Below are positions 528 to 61,960 of a stretch of 64,000 nt of DNA, piece after piece. The translations under genes were made by a program, and so were the position numbers. The notes under the pieces were generated by a model. That model saw only the letters and a program-made list of their open reading frames with translations. It did no database searches and was not told the DNA's origin. Position 1 is the first letter of the stretch; each line of letters starts with the position of its first letter. Source of the stretch: Alphaproteobacteria bacterium (lineage in GTDB: Bacteria > Pseudomonadota > Alphaproteobacteria > SP197); NCBI GenBank assembly GCA_965200215.1, contig OZ241369.1, positions 1,027,787 to 1,091,786 of the forward strand, written 5' to 3'.

Positions 528-625
528 CCCTCCTTCGAACGACCACCGGCGGTGGAAGGGCGGCGTTTATCCCCCCCCCCCCCCGGCGGTGTCAACGGGG
601 GGCGGGCAGTTTTTTCGGGGGTGGG

Positions 626-780
626 GGGTAGTGGCCGGTGGCCGGTGGCCAGTGGCTAGTGGTTAGTGAGAGCGGGGGGTGGGGGCGGTGCCTGGCGGCG
701 GGGGACGGTGCGTCGGCGGGCCTTCGGCCCGTTGCCGGCGGGACGCCGGCGCTCCCAGGGGGGCGCGGTTGGTAGGGGGT
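626..780. repeat. composite GC-rich repeat element (heptamer (A/G)GTGGYN array + GAGAGCGGG...GGTGCCTGGCGG + hairpin core GACGGGCC-n-GGCCCGTT / GCCGGCG-GGA-CGCCGGC)
   Basis: Sequence motif recurs at least 25 times in the window with the same order of modules. Confidence 0.8.
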
Positions 781-801
781 AGTGCCTGGCGGTGGTGCCT
801 T

Positions 802-1092
802 TCAGTTGGCGGCGGTTTCGTCGGCGGGTGCCTGGGCCAGGCGGTCGGGGCGGGCCAGGGCGCCGGCAACCGTGCCTTCGATGCGCGCCATGCGCTCGCG
901 CAACTCCGCCTGCCCCGCCTCGATGCGGACGAGGCGTTCCTCGACGCCGGCAAACCGCGTTTCGATGCGGGTTTCCAGGGCGGCAAAGCGCGCTTCCAGG
1001 GCGGCCATGTCGGCGCGCTGCCAGCCGAACAAGACGACGTTCATGGCCGCGATGGCGAAGAACAGGGTGATGAAGGGGTTGACCTTCGGCAT
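802..1092 (-). CDS. small membrane protein, N-terminal TM helix (PFITLFFAIAAMNVVLFGW) + C-terminal coiled coil with ARFAALETRIE hendecad repeats; paralog 1 of 5
   Basis: ORF track. Five near-identical paralogs (96-115 aa) that differ in hendecad repeat number. Conserved upstream sequence. Confidence 0.7.
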   Translation of the reverse strand: MPKVNPFITLFFAIAAMNVVLFGWQRADMAALEARFAALETRIETRFAGVEERLVRIEAGQAELRERMARIEGTVAGALARPDRLAQAPADETAAN

Positions 1093-1149
1093 GACGGTTT
1101 CCGCCAGGTTCGTTCGTCACCTTAGCGCATGGGGCGCGGGTGGCGGCGA

Positions 1150-1340
1150 GCGGTGCCTGGGTGGGGGGTGGTGCGTTGACCTTGCGGCCCGTTGCCGGCG
1201 GAACGCCGGCGCTTTGGCCAGTGGTCAGTGGCTAGTGGTCAGTGAGAGCGGGTGGTGGGGGCGGTGCCTGGGTGTGGGGCGGTCGGTGCGTTGGCGGCGG
1301 GACGCCGGCGCTCCCAGGGGGCGTGTGGCGGGCAGTGTGC
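1150..1340. repeat. composite GC-rich repeat element (two core copies flanking a heptamer array)
   Basis: Core hairpin motifs ...CGTTGACCTTGCGGCCCGTTGCCGGCGGAACGCCGGCGC... and ...GGCGGCGGGACGCCGGCGCTCCCAGGGGG... Confidence 0.75.
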
Positions 1341-1448
1341 CAGGGGCGCCGGGTGGTGGGTGGCGGGCGAAGCGCTCTTGCTTTTCGGCTTGCTCACGCT
1401 GCTGCCACAGGCTAAGCTGTTGCGACCGTCCCGCATGGAGCCATCGCC

Positions 1449-1712
1449 ATGACCCTTGCCGCCTTCGACACCCTCGCCGCCACCCGCGACCTGGAAGCGG
1501 CCGGCATGGAGCGGCGCCAGGCGGAAGCCGTCGCCGAGGTCACGGCACAGGCGGCCGTCACCGGCCATGGCGAGCTGGCCACCAAGGCGGACCTCGCCAC
1601 CGGTCTCGCCGATCTCAAAACCGCCATGGCGCGGCAGGAAGCGCGTATCTATCTGGCGCTGGTCGGGGTGGTCTTCGCCATCCTCGCCGCCGACAGGTTG
1701 CTGCCTTCGTAG
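1449..1712 (+). CDS. DUF1640-family coiled-coil protein with C-terminal TM helix (FDT...RQAEA...TKADL...LKTAMARQEARIYLALVGVVFAILAA)
   Basis: ORF track. Pattern matches my recollection of the DUF1640 (CCDC90-like) family. Paralog at 2644..2922 and a third copy at 22985..23206. Confidence 0.7.
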   Translation: MTLAAFDTLAATRDLEAAGMERRQAEAVAEVTAQAAVTGHGELATKADLATGLADLKTAMARQEARIYLALVGVVFAILAADRLLPS

Positions 1713-1932
1713 CAGGCTGCACCGGGGCGGCCCGTGGCCGCCGCAATGGAGCCCGCCGCCTTCGATACCCTCGCCGCCAGCCGCGGCCTGGAAGCGCCGG
1801 CATGGGGCGGTGCGTCGGCGGGCCTTGCGGCCCGTTTGCCGGCGGGACGCCGGCGCTCGGGGAAACGGTGCGTGGGCGGGCCTGACGGCCCGCCGGGGGG
1901 CGTGACGCTCGGTCGGTACTGGGGGGCGCCTT

Positions 1933-2280
1933 TCAGTTGGCGGCTTCGGCTTCGTCGGCGGGTGCCTGGGCCAGGCGGTCGGGGCGGGCCAGGGCGCCGG
2001 CAACCGTGCCCTCGATGCGCGCCATGCGCTCGCGCAACTCCGCCTGCCCCGCCTCGATGCGGACGAGGCGTTCCTCGACGCCGGCAAACCGCGTTTCGAT
2101 GCGGGTTTCCAGGGCGGCAAAGCGCGCCTCGATGGCGGCGAAGCGCTCCTCGATGCGGGTTTCCAGGGCGGAGAAGCGCGCTTCCAGGGCGGCCATGTCG
2201 GCCCGCTGCCAGCCGAACAAGACGACGTTCATGGCCGCGATGGCGAAGAACAGGGTGATGAAGGGGTTGACCTTTGGCAT
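1933..2280 (-). CDS. small TM/coiled-coil protein, paralog 2 (115 aa, extra hendecad repeats)
   Basis: ORF track; paralogy to 802..1092. Confidence 0.7.
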   Translation of the reverse strand: MPKVNPFITLFFAIAAMNVVLFGWQRADMAALEARFSALETRIEERFAAIEARFAALETRIETRFAGVEERLVRIEAGQAELRERMARIEGTVAGALARPDRLAQAPADEAEAAN

Positions 2281-2329
2281 GGCGGTTTCCGCCGGACGCG
2301 TTCGCTACCTTAGCGCATGGGGCGCAGGT

Positions 2330-2570
2330 GGCCAAGCGCGGCGGGCGATGGCGAGCAGTGCCTGGGTGGGGGTGGTGCGTTGACCTGGCGGCCCGTTGCC
2401 GGCGGGACGCCGGCGCTTTGGCCGGTGGCCGGTGGCCAGTGAGAGCGGGTGGTGGGGGCGGTGCCTGGGTGGGGCGGTCGGTGCGTTGGCGGCGGGACGC
2501 CGGCGCTCCCAGGGGGCGTGTGGCGGGCGGTGTGCCAGGGGCGCCGGGTGGTGGGTGGCGGGCGAAGTGG
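2330..2570. repeat. composite GC-rich repeat element
   Basis: Same module order as 1150..1340. Region 2300-2650 is a near-duplicate of 1100-1450. Confidence 0.75.
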
Positions 2571-2643
2571 TCTTGCTTCTCGGCTTGCTCACGCCGCTGC
2601 CACAGGCTAAGCTGTCGCGACCGCTCCGCATGGAGCCATCGCC

Positions 2644-2922
2644 ATGACCCTTGCCGCCTTCGACACCCTCGCCGCCACCCGCGACCTGGAAGCGGCCGGC
2701 ATGGAGCGGCGCCAGGCGGAAGCCGTCGCCGAGGTGACGGCACAGGCGGCCGTCACCGGCCATGGCGAACTGGCCACCAAGGCGGACATCAAGGACTTCG
2801 CCACCAAAGCCGACCTCGCCGATCTCAAGGCCGCCATGGCGCGGCAGGAAGCGCGCCTCTATCTGGCGTTGGTCGGGGTGGTCTTCGCCATCCTCGCCGC
2901 CGACAGGTTGCTGCCGTCGTAG
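2644..2922 (+). CDS. DUF1640-family coiled-coil/TM protein (paralog)
   Basis: ORF track; about 90% identical to 1449..1712. Confidence 0.7.
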   Translation: MTLAAFDTLAATRDLEAAGMERRQAEAVAEVTAQAAVTGHGELATKADIKDFATKADLADLKAAMARQEARLYLALVGVVFAILAADRLLPS

Positions 2923-3143
2923 CAGGTCGCGCCGGGGCGGCCCGTGGCCGCCGCAATGGAGCCCGCCGCCTTCGATACCCTCGCCGCCAGCAGCGGCCTG
3001 GAAACGTCGGCGTGGGGCGGTGTGGCAGAGGTGGTGCCTGGCGGCCCGTTGCCGGCGGGACGCCGGCGCTCGGGGAGCGGTGTGTGGGCGGGCCTGGCGG
3101 CCCGCCGGGGGGCGTGACGCTCGGTCGGTACTGGGGGCGCCCT

Positions 3144-3476
3144 TCAGTTGGCGGCGGTTTCGTCGGCGGGTGCCTGGGCCAGGCGGTCGGGGCGGGCCAG
3201 GGCGCCGGCAACCGTGCCTTCGATGCGCGCCATGCGCTCGCGCAACTCCGCCTGACCGGCCTCGATGCGGACGAGGCGTTCCTCGACGCCGGCGAACCGC
3301 GTTTCGATGCGGACCATGCGCTCGCGCAGCTCCACCTGCCCGGCCTCGATGCGGTTGAAGCGCGCCTCGATGCGGGTTTCCAGGGCGGTCATGTCGGCCC
3401 GCTGCCAGCCGAACAGGCCGATGTTCATGGCCGCGATGGCGAGGAACAAGGTGACGAGGGGGTTGATCTTCGGCAT
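3144..3476 (-). CDS. small TM/coiled-coil protein, paralog 3 (divergent: MPKINPLVTLFLAIAAMNIGLFGW)
   Basis: ORF track. Confidence 0.7.
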   Translation of the reverse strand: MPKINPLVTLFLAIAAMNIGLFGWQRADMTALETRIEARFNRIEAGQVELRERMVRIETRFAGVEERLVRIEAGQAELRERMARIEGTVAGALARPDRLAQAPADETAAN

Positions 3477-3688
3477 GACGGTTTCCGCCGGGCGCGTTCG
3501 CTACCTTAGCGCATGGGGCGCGGGTGGCCAAGCGCGGCGGGTGGCGGCGAGCGGTGCCTGGGTGGGGGGTGGTGCGTTGACCTTGCGGCCCGTTGCCGGC
3601 GGGACGCCGGCGCTCGGGGAGCGGTGTGTGGGCGGGCCTGGCGGCCCGCCGGGGAGCGTGACGCTCGGTCGGTACTGGGGGGCGCCCT

Positions 3689-3982
3689 TCAGTTGGCGGC
3701 TTCGGCTTCGTCGGTGGGCGCCTGGGCCAGGCGGTCGGGGCGGGCTAGGGCGCCGGCAACCGTGCCCTCGATGCGCGCCATGCGCTCGCGCAACTCCGCC
3801 TGCCCTGCCTCGATGCGGACGAGGCGTTCCTCGACGCCGGCAAACCTCGTTTCGATGCGGGTTTCCAGGGCAATGAAGCGCGCTTTCAGGGCAGCCATGT
3901 CGGCCCGCTGCCAACCGAACAAGACGACGTTCATGGCCGCGATGGCGAAGAACAGGGTGATGAAGGGGTTGACCTTTGGCAT
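3689..3982 (-). CDS. small TM/coiled-coil protein, paralog 4
   Basis: ORF track. Confidence 0.7.
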   Translation of the reverse strand: MPKVNPFITLFFAIAAMNVVLFGWQRADMAALKARFIALETRIETRFAGVEERLVRIEAGQAELRERMARIEGTVAGALARPDRLAQAPTDEAEAAN

Positions 3983-4242
3983 GACGGTTTCCGCCGGGCG
4001 CGTTCGCTACCTTAGCGCATGGAGCGCGGGTGGCCAAGCGCGGCGGGTGACGGCCGGTGGCTAGTGGCTAGTGGTCGGTGAGAGCGGGAAACGGGGGCGG
4101 TGCCTGACGGCGGGCGTGTGGTGCGTTGGCGGGCCTGGCGGCCCGTTTGCCGGCGGGATGCCGGCGCTCGGGGAGCGGTGTGTGGGCGGGCCTGGCGGCC
4201 CGCCGGGGGGCGTGACGCTCGGTCGGTACTGGGGGGCGCCCT

Positions 4243-4566
4243 TCAGTTGGCGGCGGTTTCGTCGGCGGGTGCCTGGGCTAGGCGGTCGGGGCGGGCCAGG
4301 GCGCCGGCGACCGTGCCTTCGATGCGCGCCATGCGCTCGCGCAGTTCCGCCTGACCGGCCTCGATGCGGACGAGGCGTTCCTCGACGGCGGCAAACCGCG
4401 TTTCGATGCGGGTTTCCAGGGCGGCAAAGCGCGCCTCGATGGCGGCGAAGCGCTCCTCGATGCGGGTTTCCAGGGCGGCCATGTCGGCCCGCTGCCAGCC
4501 GAACAAGACGACGTTCATGGCCGCGATGGCGAAGAACAGGGTGATGAAGGGGTTGACCTTTGGCAT
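4243..4566 (-). CDS. small TM/coiled-coil protein, paralog 5
   Basis: ORF track. Confidence 0.7.
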   Translation of the reverse strand: MPKVNPFITLFFAIAAMNVVLFGWQRADMAALETRIEERFAAIEARFAALETRIETRFAAVEERLVRIEAGQAELRERMARIEGTVAGALARPDRLAQAPADETAAN

Positions 4567-4599
4567 GACGGTTTCCGCCGGGCGCGTTCGCTACCTTAG

Positions 4600-4830
4600 C
4601 GCATGGGGCGCGGGTGGCCAAGGGTGGCGGGTGGCGGCCGGTGGCTAGTGGTTAGTGGTTAGTGGGAGCGGGGGGTGGGGGGTGGGGGCGGTGCCTGGCG
4701 GCGGGATGCTCGGTCGGTGCCTGGAGGCGGGGCGCCGGCGCTCGGGGGGATGGTGTGTGGGCGGGCCGGACGGCCCGCCGGGGGACGTGTGGCTGACGGC
4801 GGTGCCCGGGGGTGCGCTGGGTGGTGGGTG
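4600..4830. repeat. composite GC-rich repeat element
   Basis: Heptamer array + core motifs. Confidence 0.7.
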
Positions 4831-4833
4831 GCT

Positions 4834-5997
4834 TTAGTCCTGGTGGAAATGCCTGGACAGCGCCAGCCCCTGGCCCTGGTAGTGGCTGCCGAGGGCGGCG
4901 CCGTAGAGCAGGTCGGGCCGGGCCAGCAGGCGCTCGTAGCGCAGGCGGCCCATGATCTGGCCGTGTTCCAGGAGGAAGGGCACCTCGTGGCTGCGCACCT
5001 CCAGGACGGCGCGGGAACCGGCGCTGCCGTCGGCGCTCCAGCCGAAGCCGGGGTCGAAAAAGCCGGCGTAGTGGGCGCGGAATTCGCCGACCAGGGTGTC
5101 GTAGGCGGCCATTTCGGCGGCGTGATCGGGCGGCACCTTGACCTGCTCGCGGGTGGCCAGGAGGTAGAACTCGCCGGGATCGAGGATGAGGCGGCCATCG
5201 GCGGGGGGCGGGATGGGGTCCCAGAAGGCCCGCCAGTCCAGCGCCCCCTTACGGTCGATATCGACGATGCCGGCGTGGCGCCGGGCGCGGTAGCCCACCG
5301 GCGCGCCCGGCGCGGCGCCGCGCAGATCGAGCGTGACGGCCAGCGAATCTTCGCGGATGGACGCCTCGCCCTCGGGGGTGTCGACCAGGCGGTGGCGCTG
5401 GTGGAGGCGCGCGAGCGTCACCTCGCCGAAAACCGGCTTGCCGCGCCGGAGCCGCAATTGCGCCAGCCTGGAACCCTGCCTGACGACGGCGCTGAAGGTG
5501 CGCGGCGAGACCTCGGCATAGAGGCGGCCGCGATAGCCGCGCGGCACGCGGTCGAACTCGGTGGCGTAATCGGCGATGACGCGGGTGAAGACGTCGAGCC
5601 GGCCGGTGGAGCTCCTGGGATTGGCGAGGCCGGCGGTCTCGCCCGCGAGCCGCAGCCTTTCCTGCAAGGCCACGACATAGACGCAGCCCTTTTCCAGGAC
5701 GGCGCCGGCGGCCAGGTCGATGCGGTGCATGCCCAGCTGGGAGAGCTTGCGCTCCACCGTGGCGCGCGGTCCCGGCAGAAAGGAGGAGCGCACCCGCCAG
5801 GCGGTCGCGCCCAGGCGGAGATCGATGCTGGCGGGCTGGATCTGGCCGGGAACGAGGGGGCGGTCGGCGAAGATGGCCCTGCCCGCCCCTTCCCGCCCCT
5901 CGCCCACCAGGGCGCGCAGGCGCTGCGAGGGCAGCACGCCGGTGGTGGAGGCGGCGCCGTCGTCGTCGATGAAGCCGAAATGGAACTGTGTCGCCAC
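4834..5997 (-). CDS. dcd: 2'-deoxycytidine 5'-triphosphate deaminase family protein (long two-domain form)
   Basis: ORF track. Motif PASIDLRLG typical of the dCTP deaminase/dUTPase fold. About 387 aa, like the long alphaproteobacterial dCTP deaminase-like proteins. Confidence 0.6.
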   Translation of the reverse strand: MATQFHFGFIDDDGAASTTGVLPSQRLRALVGEGREGAGRAIFADRPLVPGQIQPASIDLRLGATAWRVRSSFLPGPRATVERKLSQLGMHRIDLAAGAVLEKGCVYVVALQERLRLAGETAGLANPRSSTGRLDVFTRVIADYATEFDRVPRGYRGRLYAEVSPRTFSAVVRQGSRLAQLRLRRGKPVFGEVTLARLHQRHRLVDTPEGEASIREDSLAVTLDLRGAAPGAPVGYRARRHAGIVDIDRKGALDWRAFWDPIPPPADGRLILDPGEFYLLATREQVKVPPDHAAEMAAYDTLVGEFRAHYAGFFDPGFGWSADGSAGSRAVLEVRSHEVPFLLEHGQIMGRLRYERLLARPDLLYGAALGSHYQGQGLALSRHFHQD

Positions 5998-6059
5998 GGC
6001 TGCCGCCCCCGACGCCCGGCGGCGAAGCTAGCAGGGTGGGCGGGGGGTGGGCGAGTGGG

Positions 6060-6314
6060 GGGGTAGTGGATAGTGGATAGTGGCCAGTAGCCAGTGGTCG
6101 GTGGCCAGTGGGAGCGGGTGGTGGAGAGGGTGCCCGGCGGTGGGGGGAGTGCGTTGACGGGCCTACGGCCCGTTTGCCGGCGGGACGCCGGCGCTCCCAG
6201 GGGGCGGGACGCCTGGGGGTGGTGGCAAACGGTGCCTGGCCGTTTTCGAACCTAGGCGCTACCGCAAAGATCCAGCGCCACCCGCTCTCACCATCCACTA
6301 ACCACTAGCCACTA
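6060..6314. repeat. composite GC-rich repeat element (heptamer arrays + core + GGCAAACGG...TTCGAACC terminal module), interrupted by IS
   Basis: Motifs as elsewhere. The heptamer array continues at 7165-7200 on the other side of the IS. Confidence 0.7.
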
Positions 6315-7162
6315 GGCTCAGGACCCATAAACGGTCTTGAGTATTGTTGTGAGAAGTGGTTCAAGCTCTTCCAGATATAGAGGAGGCTATCATGTCTGAC
6401 CACCACTTCTGGTTATCGGATGCCCAGTTCGCCCGCATCCAGCCGCTGTTGCCCAACAAGGTGCGCGGTGTGCCCCGGGTCGATGACCGGCGCGTCATCT
6501 CGGGCATCATCCACGTCATTCGCAACGGGCTGAGGTGGCGTGACGCGCCGCCTGAATACGGTCCTCACAAGACCCTCTACAACCGCTTCGTGCGCTGGAG
6601 CAGGGCTGGCGTATTCGGACGCATCTTCGAGGCTCTGGCTGCCGACAGCCGGGCGTCGGGGACGGTGATGATCGACGCCACCTACCTGAAGGCTCACCGG
6701 ACTGCGGCCAGCCTGCTCAAAAAGGGGCTTTTCCGCGATGTATCGGGCGTAGCCGAGGCGGCTTGAACTCGAAGCTGCACGCGGTTTGCGACGGCGATGG
6801 CAAGCCCTTGATCCTGCTGCTGACCGAGGGGCAGGCCAGCGACTACCGGGGTGCCGAGGCCATCTTGCCGGCAGTGCCGGACGCCGATGTCCTGATCGCC
6901 GACAAGGGCTATGACAGCGACCGTTTCCGCCAAGCCCTGGCCGAACGGCGCATCGAGACATGCATCCCCGGACGGGCGAACCGCAAGAGGCCGGTAGAAT
7001 ATGACCCAAAGCTATACCAGCGGCGAAACCTCATCGAACGGATGTTCGGAAGGCTCAAGGACTGGAGGCGCATCGCCACACGATACGACCGATGCGCGCA
7101 CACCTTCTTTAGCGCTATCTGCATCGCCGCCACCGTCATCTTCTGGTTATGAGTCCTGAGCC
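6315..7162 (+). mobile_element. IS5-family insertion sequence (IS427-group-like), about 848 bp, imperfect terminal IRs GGCTCAGGACCCATAAACGG / GGCTCAGGACTCATAACCAG (rc), flanked by TA duplication, inserted into a heptamer array
   Basis: Terminal inverted repeats found by eye. Two overlapping transposase ORFs. Flanks ...CCACTA|IS|TAGCCACTGG. Confidence 0.8.
6392..7152 (+). CDS. IS5-family transposase, orfA (6392..6766) and orfB (to 7152) joined by a programmed -1 frameshift near CTC-AAA-AAG (about 6716-6724)
   Basis: ORF track (6356..6766 and 6763..7152). orfB frame is -1 relative to orfA and open back to the A-run. AGGAGG RBS directly before ATG 6392. DDE_Tnp_1-type sequence in orfB. Confidence 0.8.
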
Positions 7163-7236
7163 TAGCCACTGGCCAGTGGCGACCGGCCACCGGCGACTGT
7201 TGACAGGGCTGGCGGGGGCGGCCTAACCCCGGCGCC

Positions 7237-8595
7237 ATGGTGGAAGCTGTGCGCGTGATCGGCGGCGGGCTGGCCGGGACGGAGGCGGCCTGGCAGATCG
7301 CGCGCGCCGGGCTGCCGGTGGTGCTGGAGGAGATGCGCCCGCAACGCTCCACCCCCGCCCACCGGACCGGGCTGCTGGCGGAGCTGGTCTGTTCCAACTC
7401 CTTCCGTTCCGACGACGGCGACAACAACGCCGTCGGCCTGCTGCACGAGGAGCTGCGGCGGGCCGGTTCCGTCGTGATGGCGGCGGCCGACCGCCACCGG
7501 GTGCCGGCGGGAAGCGCGCTGGCGGTGGACCGGGAGGGCTTCGCGGCGGCGGTGGAGGCGGCGGTGGCGGGCGAGAGGTCGATCGCGGTGGCCCGGCGCG
7601 AGGCGCGGCGCCTGCCCGATGCCGGCCCGGCCATCGTCGCCACCGGGCCGCTGACCTCCGACGCGCTGGCGGCCGACATCCTCCGGGCCACGGGGGCGGA
7701 GGCGCTGGCCTTTTTCGACGCCATCGCGCCCATCGTGCACCGCGACAGCATCGATTTCGACGTCGCCTGGATGCAGTCGCGCTACGACAAGGCGGGGCGC
7801 CCCGGCGACGAGGCGGCCTATATCAATTGCCCGCTTTCGAGGGACGCCTACGACGCTTTCGTGGACGGGCTGGTGGCGGCCGAGGAGGCCGGGTTCCGGG
7901 AGTGGGAGCGGGAGACGCCCTATTTCGAGGGCTGCCTGCCGATCGAGACCATGGCCAGGCGCGGGCGCAACAGCCTGCGTTTCGGCCCCATGAAGCCGGT
8001 GGGCCTCACCGACCCCGGAAGCGGCGAGCGGCCCTTCGCCGTGGTGCAGCTGCGCCAGGACAACGCGCAGGGGACGCTGTTCAACATGGTGGGCTTTCAG
8101 ACCAAGCTGAAGCACGGCGAGCAGCTGCGCCTGTTTCGCACCGTGCCCGGCCTGGGCGAGGCCCGTTTCGCGCGGCTGGGCGGGATGCACCGCAACACCT
8201 TCATCAACAGCCCGGCGCTGCTGGATGGGGCGCTGCGGCTGCGGCGGCGCCCGCATCTGCGCTTCGCCGGCCAGATCGCTGGCGTCGAGGGCTATGTGGA
8301 AAGCGCCGCCATCGGCCTGCTGGCCGGGCGCTTCGCGGCGCTGGAACGGCAGGGGCGCGCCATCCATCCACCGCCGGCGACCACCGCCCTGGGGGCGCTG
8401 CTGAACCACATCACGGTGGGCGCCGACGCCAGCAGCTTTCAGCCCATGAACTGCAATTTCGGGCTGTTCCCGCCGCCGGACCCGCGCCTGCGCGGCAAGC
8501 AGCGGCGCGCCTCCTTCGCCATCCGCGCCCGCGCCGATCTCGGCGCCTGGCTGCAACGGCACGAAGGGCTGTTTGCGGGAGGGGCTGGGGGTTAG
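7237..8595 (+). CDS. trmFO: methylenetetrahydrofolate--tRNA-(uracil54-C5)-methyltransferase TrmFO
   Basis: ORF track. N-terminal FAD motif [12 protein letters not shown]. Conserved [14 protein letters not shown] region. Confidence 0.9.
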
Positions 8596-8599
8596 GGGC

Positions 8600-9135
8600 C
8601 GGTGGCCGGTGGCCAGTGGTTAGTGGTTAGTGGCTAGTGGTCAGTGGCTAGTGGTGCGGGTGGTGTGTGGCGGTGCCTGGCGGTGGGGTGTGGTGCGTTG
8701 ACGGGCCTTGCGGCCCGTTTGCCGGCGGGACGCCGGCGCTCCCAGGGGGCGCGTGTGGCTGACGATGGTGCCTGGGGCAGGTGGCTAGTGGTCAGTGGCC
8801 GGTGGCTAGTGGCCAGTGGTGCGGGTGGTGTGTGGCGGTGCCTGGCGGTGGGGTGTGGTGCGTTGACGGGCCTTGCGGCCCGTTTGCCGGCGGGACGCCG
8901 GCGCTCCCAGGGGGCGCGTGTGGCTGACGATGGTGCCTGGGGCAGGTGGCTAGTGGTCAGTGGCCGGTGGCTAATGGCCAGTGGTGCGGGTGGTGTGTGG
9001 TGGTGCCTGGCGGTGGGGACGGTGCGTGGGCGGGCCTTCGGCCCGTTTGCCGGCGGGACGCCGGCGCTCGGGGAAACGATGTGTGGGCGGGCCTGACGGC
9101 CCGCCGGGGGGCGTGACGCTGGCGGCGGTGCCTGG
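8600..9135. repeat. three tandem copies of the composite repeat element (about 178-bp units duplicated at 8644-8820 and 8822-9000, plus a third core)
   Basis: Near-identical tandem blocks, each ending in heptamer arrays. Confidence 0.75.
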
Positions 9136-13756: not shown

Positions 13757-14932
13757 ATGACGCTGGCGGAACTGACGGGCGCGCTTCGCGCCCTGGCCGA
13801 AGGCCCCTTCGAGGAAGCCCGCGCGGCGCCGCCCGGCATCTACAGCTCGCCGCAATTCCTGGACCTGGAGCAGCGCCACATCTTCGCGAAGGAATGGATC
13901 TGCGCCGGGCGGGCCGAGACGCTGGCGAAGGCGGGCGACTATCTCACCATGGAGATCGCCGGGCAGCCGGTGCTGGTCGTCAAGGGGCGCGACGGCACCA
14001 TCCGCGCCTTCTCCAATGTCTGCCTGCACCGCATGAGCGTGCTGCTGGAAGGGCGCGGCAACCGCAGGACCGTCTCCTGCCCCTATCACGCCTGGAGCTA
14101 CGACCTCGACGGGCGGCTGCTGGCCGCCCCTCACATGGAGAAAAGCCCCGCCTTCCGCCGCCGCGACTACCGGCTGCCCCAACTGCGCTGCGAGCTGTGG
14201 GAGGGCTGGATCTACGTCTCGCTCGACCCCGACATCGAGCCGGTGGCAAGGCGCCTGCGGGCGGTGAAGGAGACGGTGACCGGCCGCTACCGTTTCGAGG
14301 ACTACCGGGAGGCGTGGCGCGAGGAGCGCGTCTGGAACGCCAACTGGAAGATCCTGGCCGAGAATTTCATGGAGAGCTACCACCTGTTCCGGCTTCACCG
14401 CGCCACGGTGGGGCCGCAATCGCGGGTGGACGAGATGCGGATGCCGGCCGGCGGGGCCGCCTTCAACCACCACTGGATCACCAAGGAATCGGATTTCACG
14501 CTGGCCAACGCCCATCCCGACTGCGGCTATCTGGAGGGCGAATGGCGGCGCACCACGGCGCTGATCACCATCTATCCCAGCCACATGATCACGCTGACGC
14601 CGGGCTATTTCTGGTATCTGGTGCTGCAACCCGACGGCAGCGAGCGGGTGCGGATCCTCTATGGCGGCGGCATGGCGCCCGACTTCGCCGCCGACGCCAG
14701 GGGCGCCGAGCATATCGGGGCCGCCAGGGCGCTGCTGGACGCGGTCAACGAGGAGGACCGGGTGGGCGTGGAGGCGGTCATGCGCGGCATGAAGGCCAGG
14801 CTCGCCCGCCCCGGCCATCTGAGCCATCTGGAGCGGCCCAATTTCGAGTTCTGGCAATATATCGCCCGCCGGGTGGCCGGCAGCGAGGCTGGGCCGGGGG
14901 CTAGTGGCCAGTGGCCGGGGGCTAGTGGTTAG
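13757..14932 (+). CDS. Rieske (2Fe-2S) ring-hydroxylating oxygenase alpha subunit family protein
   Basis: ORF track. Rieske motif CLHR...CPYHAW. Last approximately 7 codons and stop lie inside a heptamer array. Confidence 0.8.
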   Translation: MTLAELTGALRALAEGPFEEARAAPPGIYSSPQFLDLEQRHIFAKEWICAGRAETLAKAGDYLTMEIAGQPVLVVKGRDGTIRAFSNVCLHRMSVLLEGRGNRRTVSCPYHAWSYDLDGRLLAAPHMEKSPAFRRRDYRLPQLRCELWEGWIYVSLDPDIEPVARRLRAVKETVTGRYRFEDYREAWREERVWNANWKILAENFMESYHLFRLHRATVGPQSRVDEMRMPAGGAAFNHHWITKESDFTLANAHPDCGYLEGEWRRTTALITIYPSHMITLTPGYFWYLVLQPDGSERVRILYGGGMAPDFAADARGAEHIGAARALLDAVNEEDRVGVEAVMRGMKARLARPGHLSHLERPNFEFWQYIARRVAGSEAGPGASGQWPGASG

Positions 14933-15135
14933 TGGTTAGTGGTTAGTGGTTAGTGGTTAGTGGTTAGTGAGAGCGGGGGTGGGGGTGGTGCCTGGCGGTG
15001 GGCGGTGGTGCGTTGACGGGCCTGCGGCCCGTTGCCGGCGGGACGCCGGCGCTCCCAGGGGGCGTGACGCTGGCGGCGGTGCCTGGGGGGCGCGGGTGAC
15101 GGACGGCGGTGGCTGGGGGGCGCGGGTGGCCGGAT
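14880..15135. repeat. composite GC-rich repeat element
   Basis: Heptamer array (GGTTAGT x6) + core. Confidence 0.7.
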
Positions 15136-22984: not shown

Positions 22985-23206
22985 ATGTCCGATCCCGTCG
23001 TATTCGACACGCTCGCCTATGCGCGCCGCCTGAAAGAGGCGGGGGTCGACGACAAGCAGGCCGAAGCTCATGCGGAGGCGGCCCGCGACTCCATGATGGG
23101 GAGCGTCGCCACCAGAAGCGACCTTCTCAAGATGGAGAACAGCTTGACCTGGAAACTGCTTGGCGTCGCGGGCCTGCTGTTTGCCGCGCTCAAGCTTGTT
23201 CCTTGA
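22985..23206 (+). CDS. DUF1640-family coiled-coil/TM protein (third copy in window)
   Basis: ATG 22985 (MSDPVVFDTLAYARRLKEAG...TRSDL...WKLLGVAGLLFAALKLVP). Confidence 0.65.
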   Translation: MSDPVVFDTLAYARRLKEAGVDDKQAEAHAEAARDSMMGSVATRSDLLKMENSLTWKLLGVAGLLFAALKLVP

Positions 23207-30079: not shown

Positions 30080-30321
30080 CGCGCCTGCTCGTGCATGTGG
30101 AAGGCCAGACGGAGGAGAGTTTCGTCGACCGGATTCTGGCGCCTCACCTTTACCGGCGCGGCTTTTCTTCGATCGGCGCCCGCCTGCTCGGCAACGCCCG
30201 CCAGCGCGAGCGGCGCGGCGGCATCAAGCCCTGGCACGCGGCCCGCAGGGACATCCTGGGCCATCTGCGGCAGGACCGCGAGGCCGTGGCCAGTGGCCGG
30301 TGGCTAGTGGTTAGTGGCTAG
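30076..30321 (+). pseudogene. DUF4276-like gene remnant (N-terminal about 80 aa: MTRLLVHVEGQTEESFVDRILAPHLY...), truncated by insertion of a repeat element
   Basis: ATGA start/stop overlap with the ATPase. Family members are about 200 aa (from memory). ORF ends inside a long heptamer array. Confidence 0.5.
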
Positions 30322-30560
30322 TGGTTAGTGGCTAGTGGTTAGTGGCTAGTGGTTAGTGGCTAGTGGTTAGTGGTCGGTGGGCGGTGGCCAGTAGCCGGTG
30401 GCTAGTGGTTAGTGGTTAGTGGGAGCGGGTGGTGGGGGTGGTGCCTGGCGGTGGGGTGTGGTGCGTTGACGGGCCTGCGGCCCGTTTGCCGGCGGGACGC
30501 CGGCGCTCCCAGGGGGGCGCCGGGTGGCGGGGGCGCGGTAAGGGCGGCAACCATGGCGAG
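30290..30560. repeat. composite GC-rich repeat element with long heptamer array ((GGCTAGT GGTTAGT) x7)
   Basis: Direct inspection. Confidence 0.8.
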
Positions 30561-44108: not shown

Positions 44109-44373
44109 CGGGCGCGGCGCCCGCGGCGGCACTCGTCCCGGCGCGGCGCCAGGCTGGCGCCGACGACGCGGGGGCGGGGCTTCGACACGCCGGCCTTTGC
44201 GCGGCACCTGGAAGCGGCCGGCGTGGAACGGGCGCAAGCCGAGGCGCGTGCGGGCGCAGTGCGCGATGCGGTGGCGGCGGCGACCGGGGCGGCGTTGGCG
44301 GCCGGCGTCGGCGAAATGCGGGCGGCGCTGGCGGCGCCATAGCCTTTCGCCCGCCCCCGTCGCCTGCGGGCGC

Positions 44374-61689: not shown

Positions 61690-61960
61690 GAGGCTGCGGG
61701 CCGGCGCTTTGGCTTGTGGCCGGTGGTCAGTGGTCGGTAGCCAGTGGCCAGTAGTCGGTGGTCGGTGGGAGCGGGAAATGGCGGTGGTGCCTGGCGGTGG
61801 GGGGCGGTGCGTCGGCGGGCCTTGCGGCCCGTTGCCGGCGGGACGCCGGCGCTCGGGGAACGGTGTGTGGGCGGGCCGGACGGCCCGCCGGGGGCGGGAC
61901 GCTCGGTCGGTGCCTGGTGGCGGCAAACGGCACCTGCCCATGTTCAAACCGGGGTGCCGG
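61690..61960. repeat. composite GC-rich repeat element (most complete copy: heptamers + GAGCGGG module + three stem-loops + GGCAAACGGCACCTGCCCATGTTCAAACC terminal module)
   Basis: Motifs. Confidence 0.75.

Follow-up and report, generated by a model that had tools for sequence, protein, structure and literature searches.

Which proteins are encoded in tandem, and by what process their number and length change, are the questions raised by the region 600-4650 of the 64-kb stretch of alphaproteobacterial DNA analysed here (hereafter, the window). The region contains five paralogous genes for very small membrane proteins (mini-proteins, genes m1 to m5) together with two short DUF1640/CCDC90-like genes (d1 and d2), and an original prediction had regarded the whole as a rapidly evolving, possibly phase- or copy-variable family. 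The reading favoured here, with moderate confidence, is that the locus represents a family of small bitopic proteins of the inner membrane, amplified in tandem, shaped by recombination and lineage-restricted, which form coiled-coil stalks and may be partners of the DUF1640 proteins. Its variation would take place on an evolutionary time scale, via homologous recombination, and would not reflect a programmed phase switch.

Genes and proteins of the array

The five minus-strand mini genes that had been predicted were all found exactly at the positions proposed for them, namely m1 at 802-1092 (96 amino acids, aa), m2 at 1933-2280 (115 aa), m3 at 3144-3476 (110 aa), m4 at 3689-3982 (97 aa) and m5 at 4243-4566 (107 aa), and their pairwise identity is 74-95%. 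On the plus strand, d1 (1449-1712, 87 aa) and d2 (2644-2922, 92 aa) interleave with the first two mini genes, d1 being divergent from m1 and d2 from m2. Since the overall GC content of the window is ~72%, open reading frames (ORFs) are open in every frame; however, the coding signature within 600-4650 is confined to these seven small ORFs, in which the GC content is 0.85-0.92 at third codon positions (GC3) and ~0.49 at second positions (GC2). In the conserved C-terminal half, m1 and m5 differ at 6 of 41 synonymous and 1 of 109 nonsynonymous sites, and m1 and m3 at 3 of 41 and 0 of 109, respectively. Moreover, mini-protein homologs in other species, at 40-50% identity, retain the transmembrane (TM) segment and the ERMARIEGTVAGAL motif while the DNA and the repeats differ. 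Thus, the GC3 pattern, the large excess of synonymous over nonsynonymous changes and these homologs indicate that the five m ORFs, d1 and d2 appear to be genuine protein-coding genes under purifying selection.

The mini-proteins share one order of parts, in which MPK(V/I)NP is followed by ~19 hydrophobic residues, FGWQRADM, a variable coil, an invariant block (...RLVRIEAGQAELRERMARIEGTVAGALARPDRLAQAP) and a short acidic tail. The hydrophobic N-terminal segment spans approximately residues 4-24 and a heptad-like helical region comes after it, whereas the ERMARIEGTVAGAL motif is invariant and C-terminal, located after the variable repeats. The shortest copy, m1, already displays the complete set of TM segment, coiled coil, ERMARIEGTVAGAL motif and disordered tail. 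An AlphaFold2 model of m2, built from a 20-sequence alignment, consists of one unbroken helix from residue 6 to residue 98, with a mean predicted local distance difference test (pLDDT) score of 87, and a disordered tail. The hydrophobic segment and this helix bear out the predicted plan of an N-terminal TM helix followed by a C-terminal coiled coil. The N-terminal membrane anchor runs without interruption into a long alpha-helical coiled-coil stalk, which in the window copies extends ~55-75 residues past the membrane and terminates in the invariant ERMARIEGTVAGAL cap and the disordered tail.

The paralogs had been said to differ mainly in their repeats, and this is so, as the differences are in-frame repeat insertions or deletions. 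Relative to m1, m2 carries an internal duplication of 54 nt (18 aa); m3, which also has a divergent TM variant, carries one of 42 nt (14 aa), and m5 one of 33 nt (11 aa), all of these being spacings of the repeat family. An array of 33-nt hendecad repeats had been proposed, for which the m5 duplication is a proper example; however, the lengths found in m2 and m3 do not conform to it, and Tandem Repeats Finder (TRF) detects periods of 21, 42 and 84 nt in the mini ORFs but reports none of 33 nt. The internal repeats are present in only ~2 imperfect copies of 21-84 nt according to TRF, the self-identity of the coil is much alike at lags of 7, 11, 14 and 18 residues, and its hydrophobic periodicity peaks at 3.5-3.6 residues, compared with the hendecad value of 3.67. 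Thus, the similar lags, the periodicity and the mixed sizes of the insertions show that the coil mixes heptad and hendecad segments, and just one of the three length variants, that of m5, is a hendecad insertion.

Remodelling of the array between related strains

The array is bordered on one side by an autotransporter gene (minus strand, with its ATG at 520-522) and on the other by a gene for 2'-deoxycytidine 5'-triphosphate (dCTP) deaminase (4834-5997, minus strand, E=4.5e-158), and the same interval was compared with contigs of three further strains from one metagenome, L001, L002 and L020, the last of which begins inside the array. The flanks of L001 and L002 are ~90-96% identical to those of the window, and the autotransporter of L001 is 94% identical. 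The gene content between these flanks is very different, since the window has five mini and two DUF1640 genes, L001 a single mini gene (114 aa) and no DUF1640 gene, L002 four of each (mini-proteins of 114, 110, 97 and 108 aa), and L020 at least three mini genes (108, 83 and 114 aa) and two DUF1640 genes. Beyond the autotransporter gene lies another array, which is also strain-variable, with 2+2, 3+2 and 2+>=3 copies (mini plus DUF1640, the last figure being at least three). Gene copy number thus varies among the four strains, and the comparison supports the view that this variation between related strains would arise through recombination.

Most individual copies can be matched between strains. 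The m2 protein (115 aa) corresponds to the 114-aa copies of L001 and L002, while m3 (110 and 110 aa in the window and L002, respectively), m4 (97 and 97 aa) and m5 (107 and 108 aa) have counterparts in L002, and m1 has none among the four copies of the L002 array. Three of the four matched pairs (m2, m3 and m4) retain the repeat structure of the coil, any length difference being located in the C-terminal tail (ETAAN versus EAEAAN), and m5 differs from the 108-aa L002 copy at most in the length of the tail. Moreover, two N-terminal variants and two tail variants are found in all four combinations, a mosaic pattern that indicates exchange between copies by recombination or gene conversion.

The DNA between the genes retains traces of this remodelling. 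The predicted duplication of a ~1.2-kb unit containing one m and one d gene was recovered at 91-97% identity, the segment 1274-1573 matching 2469-2768 (97%) and 1600-1821 matching 2810-3031 (91%), with a spacing of 1195-1210 bp. Two plus-strand copies of a 31-nt direct repeat, GGCGGCCCGTTGCCGGCGGGACGCCGGCGCT, flank the d2 segment on its left (2387-2417) and right (3040-3070). There is no d gene in the m3-m4 and m4-m5 spacers, and the m3-m4 spacer (3477-3688), in which the direct repeat occurs once (3585-3614), is composed of two parts of the m2-m3 spacer (2281-3143), its left 137 nt and its right 74 nt, joined inside one GGCGGCCCGTTGCCGGCGGGACGCCGGCGCT copy. A deletion of 653 bp between direct repeats would be expected to leave such a junction within a single 31-nt repeat. 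Furthermore, each d gene is followed by a 17-codon remnant of a d N-terminus on the plus strand. The first, MEPAAFDTLAASRGLEA at 1746-1796 (76% over 17 aa by tblastn), is probably a truncated tandem d copy, and the second, at 2956-3003, was recognised in the sequence and belongs to a repeat family. These remnants are consistent with an older tandem d-d arrangement, as still present in L002.

The ancestral unit was most likely a mini gene transcribed divergently from a short DUF1640/CCDC90-like gene for a tail-anchored coiled-coil protein. Close relatives differ by the gain and loss of such units, the spacer of a unit lacking DUF1640 fits a deletion between the 31-nt direct repeats, stalk length shifts via in-frame duplication of 33-54-nt coil segments, and copies swap segments, yielding mosaics. 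Bacterial tandem paralog families can be shaped by unequal crossing-over and gene conversion, and the mini array shares with them the gain and loss of units between strains, the mosaic copies and the in-frame internal repeat insertions and deletions. It differs from them in lacking evidence of surface exposure, of immune or phage selection, or of programmed switching, and in the strong conservation of its sequence outside the repeat indels.

Intergenic repeat families occupy the space between all genes of the array. Heptamer arrays, (GTGGYYR)n, are spread over more than 30 intergenic sites in the 64 kb (for example, 630-668, 8595-8653, 14897-14969 and 30286-30421), with 154 overlapping matches, nearly all on the plus strand, and a 20-nt hairpin element, GCCGGCGGGACGCCGGCGCT, is found at 25 sites (for example, 734-753, 8721-8740 and 61834-61853), all on the plus strand irrespective of the orientation of the neighbouring gene; the chance expectation is ~0.03 in each case. 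The hairpin element often adjoins the heptamer arrays, resembling a composite of the repetitive extragenic palindrome/bacterial interspersed mosaic element (REP/BIME) type. Both elements occur in the species group of the window (L001, L002, L020 and L021) and the hairpin also in L003 and L005, and neither is found in the mini arrays of three species-representative metagenome-assembled genomes (MAGs; loci L006-L019). A composite repeat element had been considered part of the system; its copies do lie between the array genes, but the repeats are a genome-wide feature that supplies short homologies and do not form part of the gene family. When the window was scanned with Rfam, tRNA-His alone was returned, so that no known RNA family corresponds to the intergenic repeats.

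Regarding expression, alignment of the upstream regions revealed a ~65-nt 5' region common to m2-m5 that could act as a promoter, with TTGGCC-N17-TAAGGT located ~35 nt upstream of the ATG; on the minus strand it occupies 4567-4631 ahead of m5, and is also present at 2281-2345, 3477-3541 and 3983-4047. Upstream of m1, a 17-nt deletion takes out the TTGGCC box, which is similar to a -35 element. Sites resembling terminators were no more frequent in a terminator consensus scan than in shuffled sequence. Two stable GC hairpins come after each m stop codon, and they were rejected as terminators because of their modest z-scores (-1 to -2.4) and the absence of a U-tract.

The arrangement of these repeats bears on another explanation, according to which the array would be a contingency locus where slippage in the coil repeats, or in simple sequence repeats (SSRs) nearby, frequently switches or resizes the proteins among the cells of a population. 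The differences in copy number across all four strains could be understood in this way, heptamer arrays lie upstream of m1, m2, m4 and m5 (those upstream of the autotransporter gene have strain-variable unit numbers), and the promoter of the neighbouring autotransporter gene has a variable poly-G tract. However, neither the ORFs nor the interval that separates the candidate -35 box from the -10 box contains a homopolymer or short SSR, the internal repeats amount to only ~2 imperfect copies, and matched copies keep their repeat structure even though the strain flanks differ by 4-10%. Every copy is, in addition, an intact ORF, with no frameshifted 'off' versions, and the heptamer arrays are genome-wide rather than locus-specific and are placed upstream of the conserved candidate promoter. 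Phase variation of the mini genes thus lacks support and is unlikely, given the absence of an SSR from the ORFs and promoter spacer and the repeat structure kept across strains. What endures of the predicted phase or copy variability is the variability in copy number, and of the predicted recombination or slippage, the recombination or gene conversion visible in the mosaics, since repeats of two imperfect copies speak against fast slippage.

Divergent pairing with DUF1640-like genes

The assignment of d1 and d2 to DUF1640 depends on their motifs more than on profile scores. Their match to PF07798 (CCDC90-like, formerly DUF1640) has E=2e-5 and 24.9 bits, compared with a gathering score of 33.5, and covers only model positions 1-70 of 175, whereas 18 of 19 aligned d homologs match this profile, the best with E=8e-8. 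The head motif of the d proteins (FDTL..xR.LE.AG....QAEA) aligns weakly with the head of CCDC90B in PDB 6h9m (E=0.18). The start of the DUF1640 stalk is marked by a beta-layer motif, [aliphatic]-A-T-K-[polar]-[D/E] (Hartmann et al. 2016, PMC4786415). This motif is LATKADL in d1 and is present as two nonads, LATKADIKD and FATKADLAD, in d2, which also aligns to the beta-layer protein 7o92. A hydrophobic C-terminal TM segment, LALVGVVFAILAA, completes the d proteins, and the AlphaFold2 model of d2 shows a helix-turn-helix at 8-38 and a C-terminal helix at 58-88, with a low pLDDT of 61. With the motifs present and the Pfam score below threshold, d1 and d2 are treated as short DUF1640-like proteins, so that the predicted DUF1640 label is retained on the head motif, the ATK[polar][DE] motif and the C-terminal TM segment, but not on the Pfam score.

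The further copy that had been predicted at 22985 was also found, as a third, diverged gene (~22985-23206, plus strand) that encodes ~73 aa from MSDPVVFDTL..., has the same layout as d1 and d2 with 33-35% identity to them, and has no mini partner nearby. For all three, the motifs support classification as short DUF1640-like proteins despite scores below the Pfam threshold. Like the CCDC90B/MCUR1 family (PF07798), they possess the head motif, the beta-layer motif and the C-terminal TM segment; in contrast, the window copies are only 73-92 aa long against a 175-position model, and d1 and d2 adjoin an unrelated mini-protein gene, a pairing absent from the Pfam description and from the cited literature. 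The opposite topologies of the two protein types had led to the suggestion that their relatedness be checked, and a profile-profile comparison of the mini and DUF1640 alignments with hhalign gave a probability of 0.2%, hence no detectable relationship.

Two additional observations concern DUF1640-like sequences. At 44178-44252, 25 encoded residues within overlapping long ORFs share 68% identity with the DUF1640 head found in d1 and d2, and this stretch is probably a further DUF1640 gene fragment. Among other DUF1640-like paralogs, stalk repeats vary in number, as seen for DAQDAKL heptads at L010 (2962-7627 of OZ251461.1) and for LEGRLT(D/H) and ADIKALE repeats in the remaining paralogs (proteins P0095, P0096, P0106 and P0147 were examined). 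Thus, both partner families evolve by changes in coil length.

The pairing of the two genes recurs outside the window. In L010, which belongs to a different species and whose m and d proteins are ~45% and ~40-49% identical to those of the window, four m genes are each divergent from an adjoining d gene, with ~200 bp between the divergent starts, and the unit is repeated four or five times. The same divergent geometry is found in the window for m1/d1 and m2/d2, with 357-364 bp between starts. The conservation of this arrangement hints at co-regulation and perhaps at a physical partnership.

Regarding topology, positive-inside counts over 42 members of the family and superfamily favour a cytoplasmic C-terminus in 18 and a cytoplasmic N-terminus in 4, with 20 ties. 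The d proteins have more positive charge ahead of their C-terminal TM segment, as would be anticipated if they are tail-anchored and have a cytoplasmic body. From these charge counts we infer that both stalks would be located on the cytoplasmic face of the inner membrane, weakly so for the mini-protein. The mini paralogs could then represent length isoforms of an oligomeric, membrane-anchored coiled-coil stalk or scaffold, perhaps associating with DUF1640 proteins.

A stronger version of this association would make the mini-proteins and the short DUF1640/CCDC90-like proteins obligate partners in an antiparallel, hetero-oligomeric scaffold on the cytoplasmic face, anchored from opposite chain ends, in which the paralogs would give different stalk lengths. 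Mitochondria, in which MCUR1/CCDC90B act as a membrane scaffold, are related to the class Alphaproteobacteria, and such an obligate pairing, if true, would be the first functional partner for prokaryotic DUF1640 proteins. We consider it distinctly improbable. Most arrays elsewhere have no DUF1640 gene (L006-L009, L011, L012 and L014-L018), which makes the partnership facultative at best.

The preferred reading of the locus, as a recombination-shaped stalk-protein family with possible DUF1640 partners, has to face this scarcity of DUF1640 genes too, and four other points also weigh against it. The lengths of paired m and d stalks do not co-vary; the window m copies tie in the charge count, with two positive charges on each side; the promoter proposed above is a weak candidate, and a strict sigma-70 consensus scan found no site; and the strains were compared through metagenomic contigs, two with low coverage (5.7x and 7x), hence single array structures could hold assembly errors.

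Neighbours, origin and spread of the mini-protein family

The mini family appears to be both uncurated and lineage-restricted. Searches of Pfam, NCBIfam, PHROGs and PADLOC with the mini-proteins gave sub-threshold coiled-coil matches only, Haemolysin XhlA (PF10779) reached 13-14.5 bits against a cutoff of 34.7, and a PDB sequence search with the family profile returned generic coiled coils only. Among 5.8 billion protein clusters, 84 belong to the mini family, and nearly all of them are metagenomic. In a set of 185,579 species with one genome each, the family was found in 3 species only, at 14 loci, all on chromosomes of MAGs designated Alphaproteobacteria bacterium, and most of these loci are tandem arrays of 2-6 copies. 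Four of the window m proteins are identical to proteins of one 2.76-Mb NCBI contig, and m2 equals in length a P0001-cluster member on that contig. A hidden Markov model (HMM) search of 1.8 billion representatives produced 39 matches at E<=1e-10, several of which are long repetitive proteins that match the coil only. The small full-length matches constitute a looser superfamily with an N-terminal TM segment, a coil variable in repeat type and number and a C-terminal (E)RMAR(I/L)EG motif, and the members of this superfamily are likewise without a curated family match in the same library scans.

The location of the arrays beside autotransporter genes raises the possibility that mini-proteins are accessory factors of these autotransporters, for instance in their biogenesis or anchoring or in surface variation under shared regulation. 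In the window, L001, L002 and L020, autotransporter genes have a mini array next to them on one side or on both, and in a second species (OZ241350.1) the order is array, autotransporter, array at L007/L012 and autotransporter, array, autotransporter at L014. Nevertheless, no autotransporter gene is found within 6 kb at L006, L008-L011, L013, L015-L019 and L021-L023, the charge bias leans towards a cytoplasmic stalk, and the autotransporter gene is equipped with a promoter and a strong ribosome-binding site of its own, so we hold such an accessory function to be very unlikely.

The promoter of the autotransporter gene in the window (565-595) has a G14 tract on the minus strand (C14 on the plus strand, 571-584), flanked on one side by a perfect TTGACA (590-595, reverse complement) and on the other by a GATAAA/ATAAAC box similar to a -10 element. 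A poly-G tract placed between -35 and -10 is classic for slipped-strand phase-variable promoters. Upstream of this gene, the tract is G14 in the window, ~G12 in L001 and G9 in L002, lengths in which long-read homopolymer errors are possible, and the number of heptamer units upstream of the gene also differs between strains. On the opposite flank of the array, just past the dCTP deaminase gene, the ORF at 6356-7009 presumably resembles an IS5-family transposase, as recognised from its sequence, and heptamer arrays in opposed orientations (6064-6111, plus; 6295-6315, minus) are located on its deaminase-proximal side.

A phage origin, with the mini-proteins as prophage remnants or domesticated versions of lysis-type membrane proteins (i-spanins, the Mu gp25 releasin/DUF2730 or XhlA-like proteins), is suggested by the architecture, since an N-terminal TM segment and a helical domain in ~100 aa are common to all of them. 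Both the Mu gp25 releasin (DUF2730, PF10805) and the Rz-like i-spanins are small proteins of this kind, the latter bitopic and with a coiled coil, and there are weak PHROG matches (phrog_12015, E ~1e-5; Rz-like spanin, E=0.005). A few distant relatives carry precomputed PF10805 matches below or near threshold, one of them marked 'faint', and the N-out/C-in topology predicted for DUF2730 proteins (PMC9239132) agrees with the topological lean described above. However, the window proteins have no PF10805 match at E<=1, and a scan of 2.9 million viral contigs yielded no relative. The DUF2730 gene of transposable (Mu-like) phage sits downstream of an endolysin gene, at a distance of no more than ~5 genes (PMC9239132), whereas the window genes are arrayed in a chromosome outside any Mu-like context, with no endolysin, holin, o-spanin or other phage gene nearby and with dCTP deaminase, autotransporter and housekeeping flanks that are syntenic with L001. 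In a search for an o-spanin around the mini genes, the alternative-frame ORFs had neither coding GC3 nor signal or lipobox-like N-termini. In addition, an arrangement of up to 6 tandem copies does not resemble a lysis cassette, and the stalk, unlike that of an i-spanin, is probably cytoplasmic. A phage lysis origin is for these reasons highly improbable. As for chance open frames in GC-rich repetitive DNA, which the 72% GC and the long ORFs in every frame would permit, their likelihood is negligible, as they are excluded by a GC3/GC2 coding pattern that is limited to the proposed frames, by the synonymous excess and by distant homologs that keep the TM segment and ERMARIEGTVAGAL.

A different genomic setting was observed at L022 (ERZ23495669 scaffold_434, 5646-7541), where four adjoining small genes, at least two of them of the mini family (P0080 and P0081), sit between DUF499 and DUF1156/AAA/SNF2-helicase genes in a defence-island-like cluster. 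This setting echoes that of the third DUF1640 gene of the window, which the original prediction had placed in a restriction-modification island.

The locus is not evidence for a new switching mechanism, and its most useful lead is the recurrent pairing with DUF1640. If the inference holds, the mini-proteins would constitute a family that is in no curated library and is yet recognisable by its TM anchor and ERMARIEGTVAGAL cap, and they would be part of a wider set of small proteins with an N-terminal TM segment, a variable coil and an 'RMARxEG' motif. The locus would also illustrate how short dispersed and gene-sized repeats remodel DNA between close relatives, with a deletion junction that can still be read, and the conserved divergent pairing would provide a concrete, testable lead to the role of DUF1640 proteins in prokaryotes.

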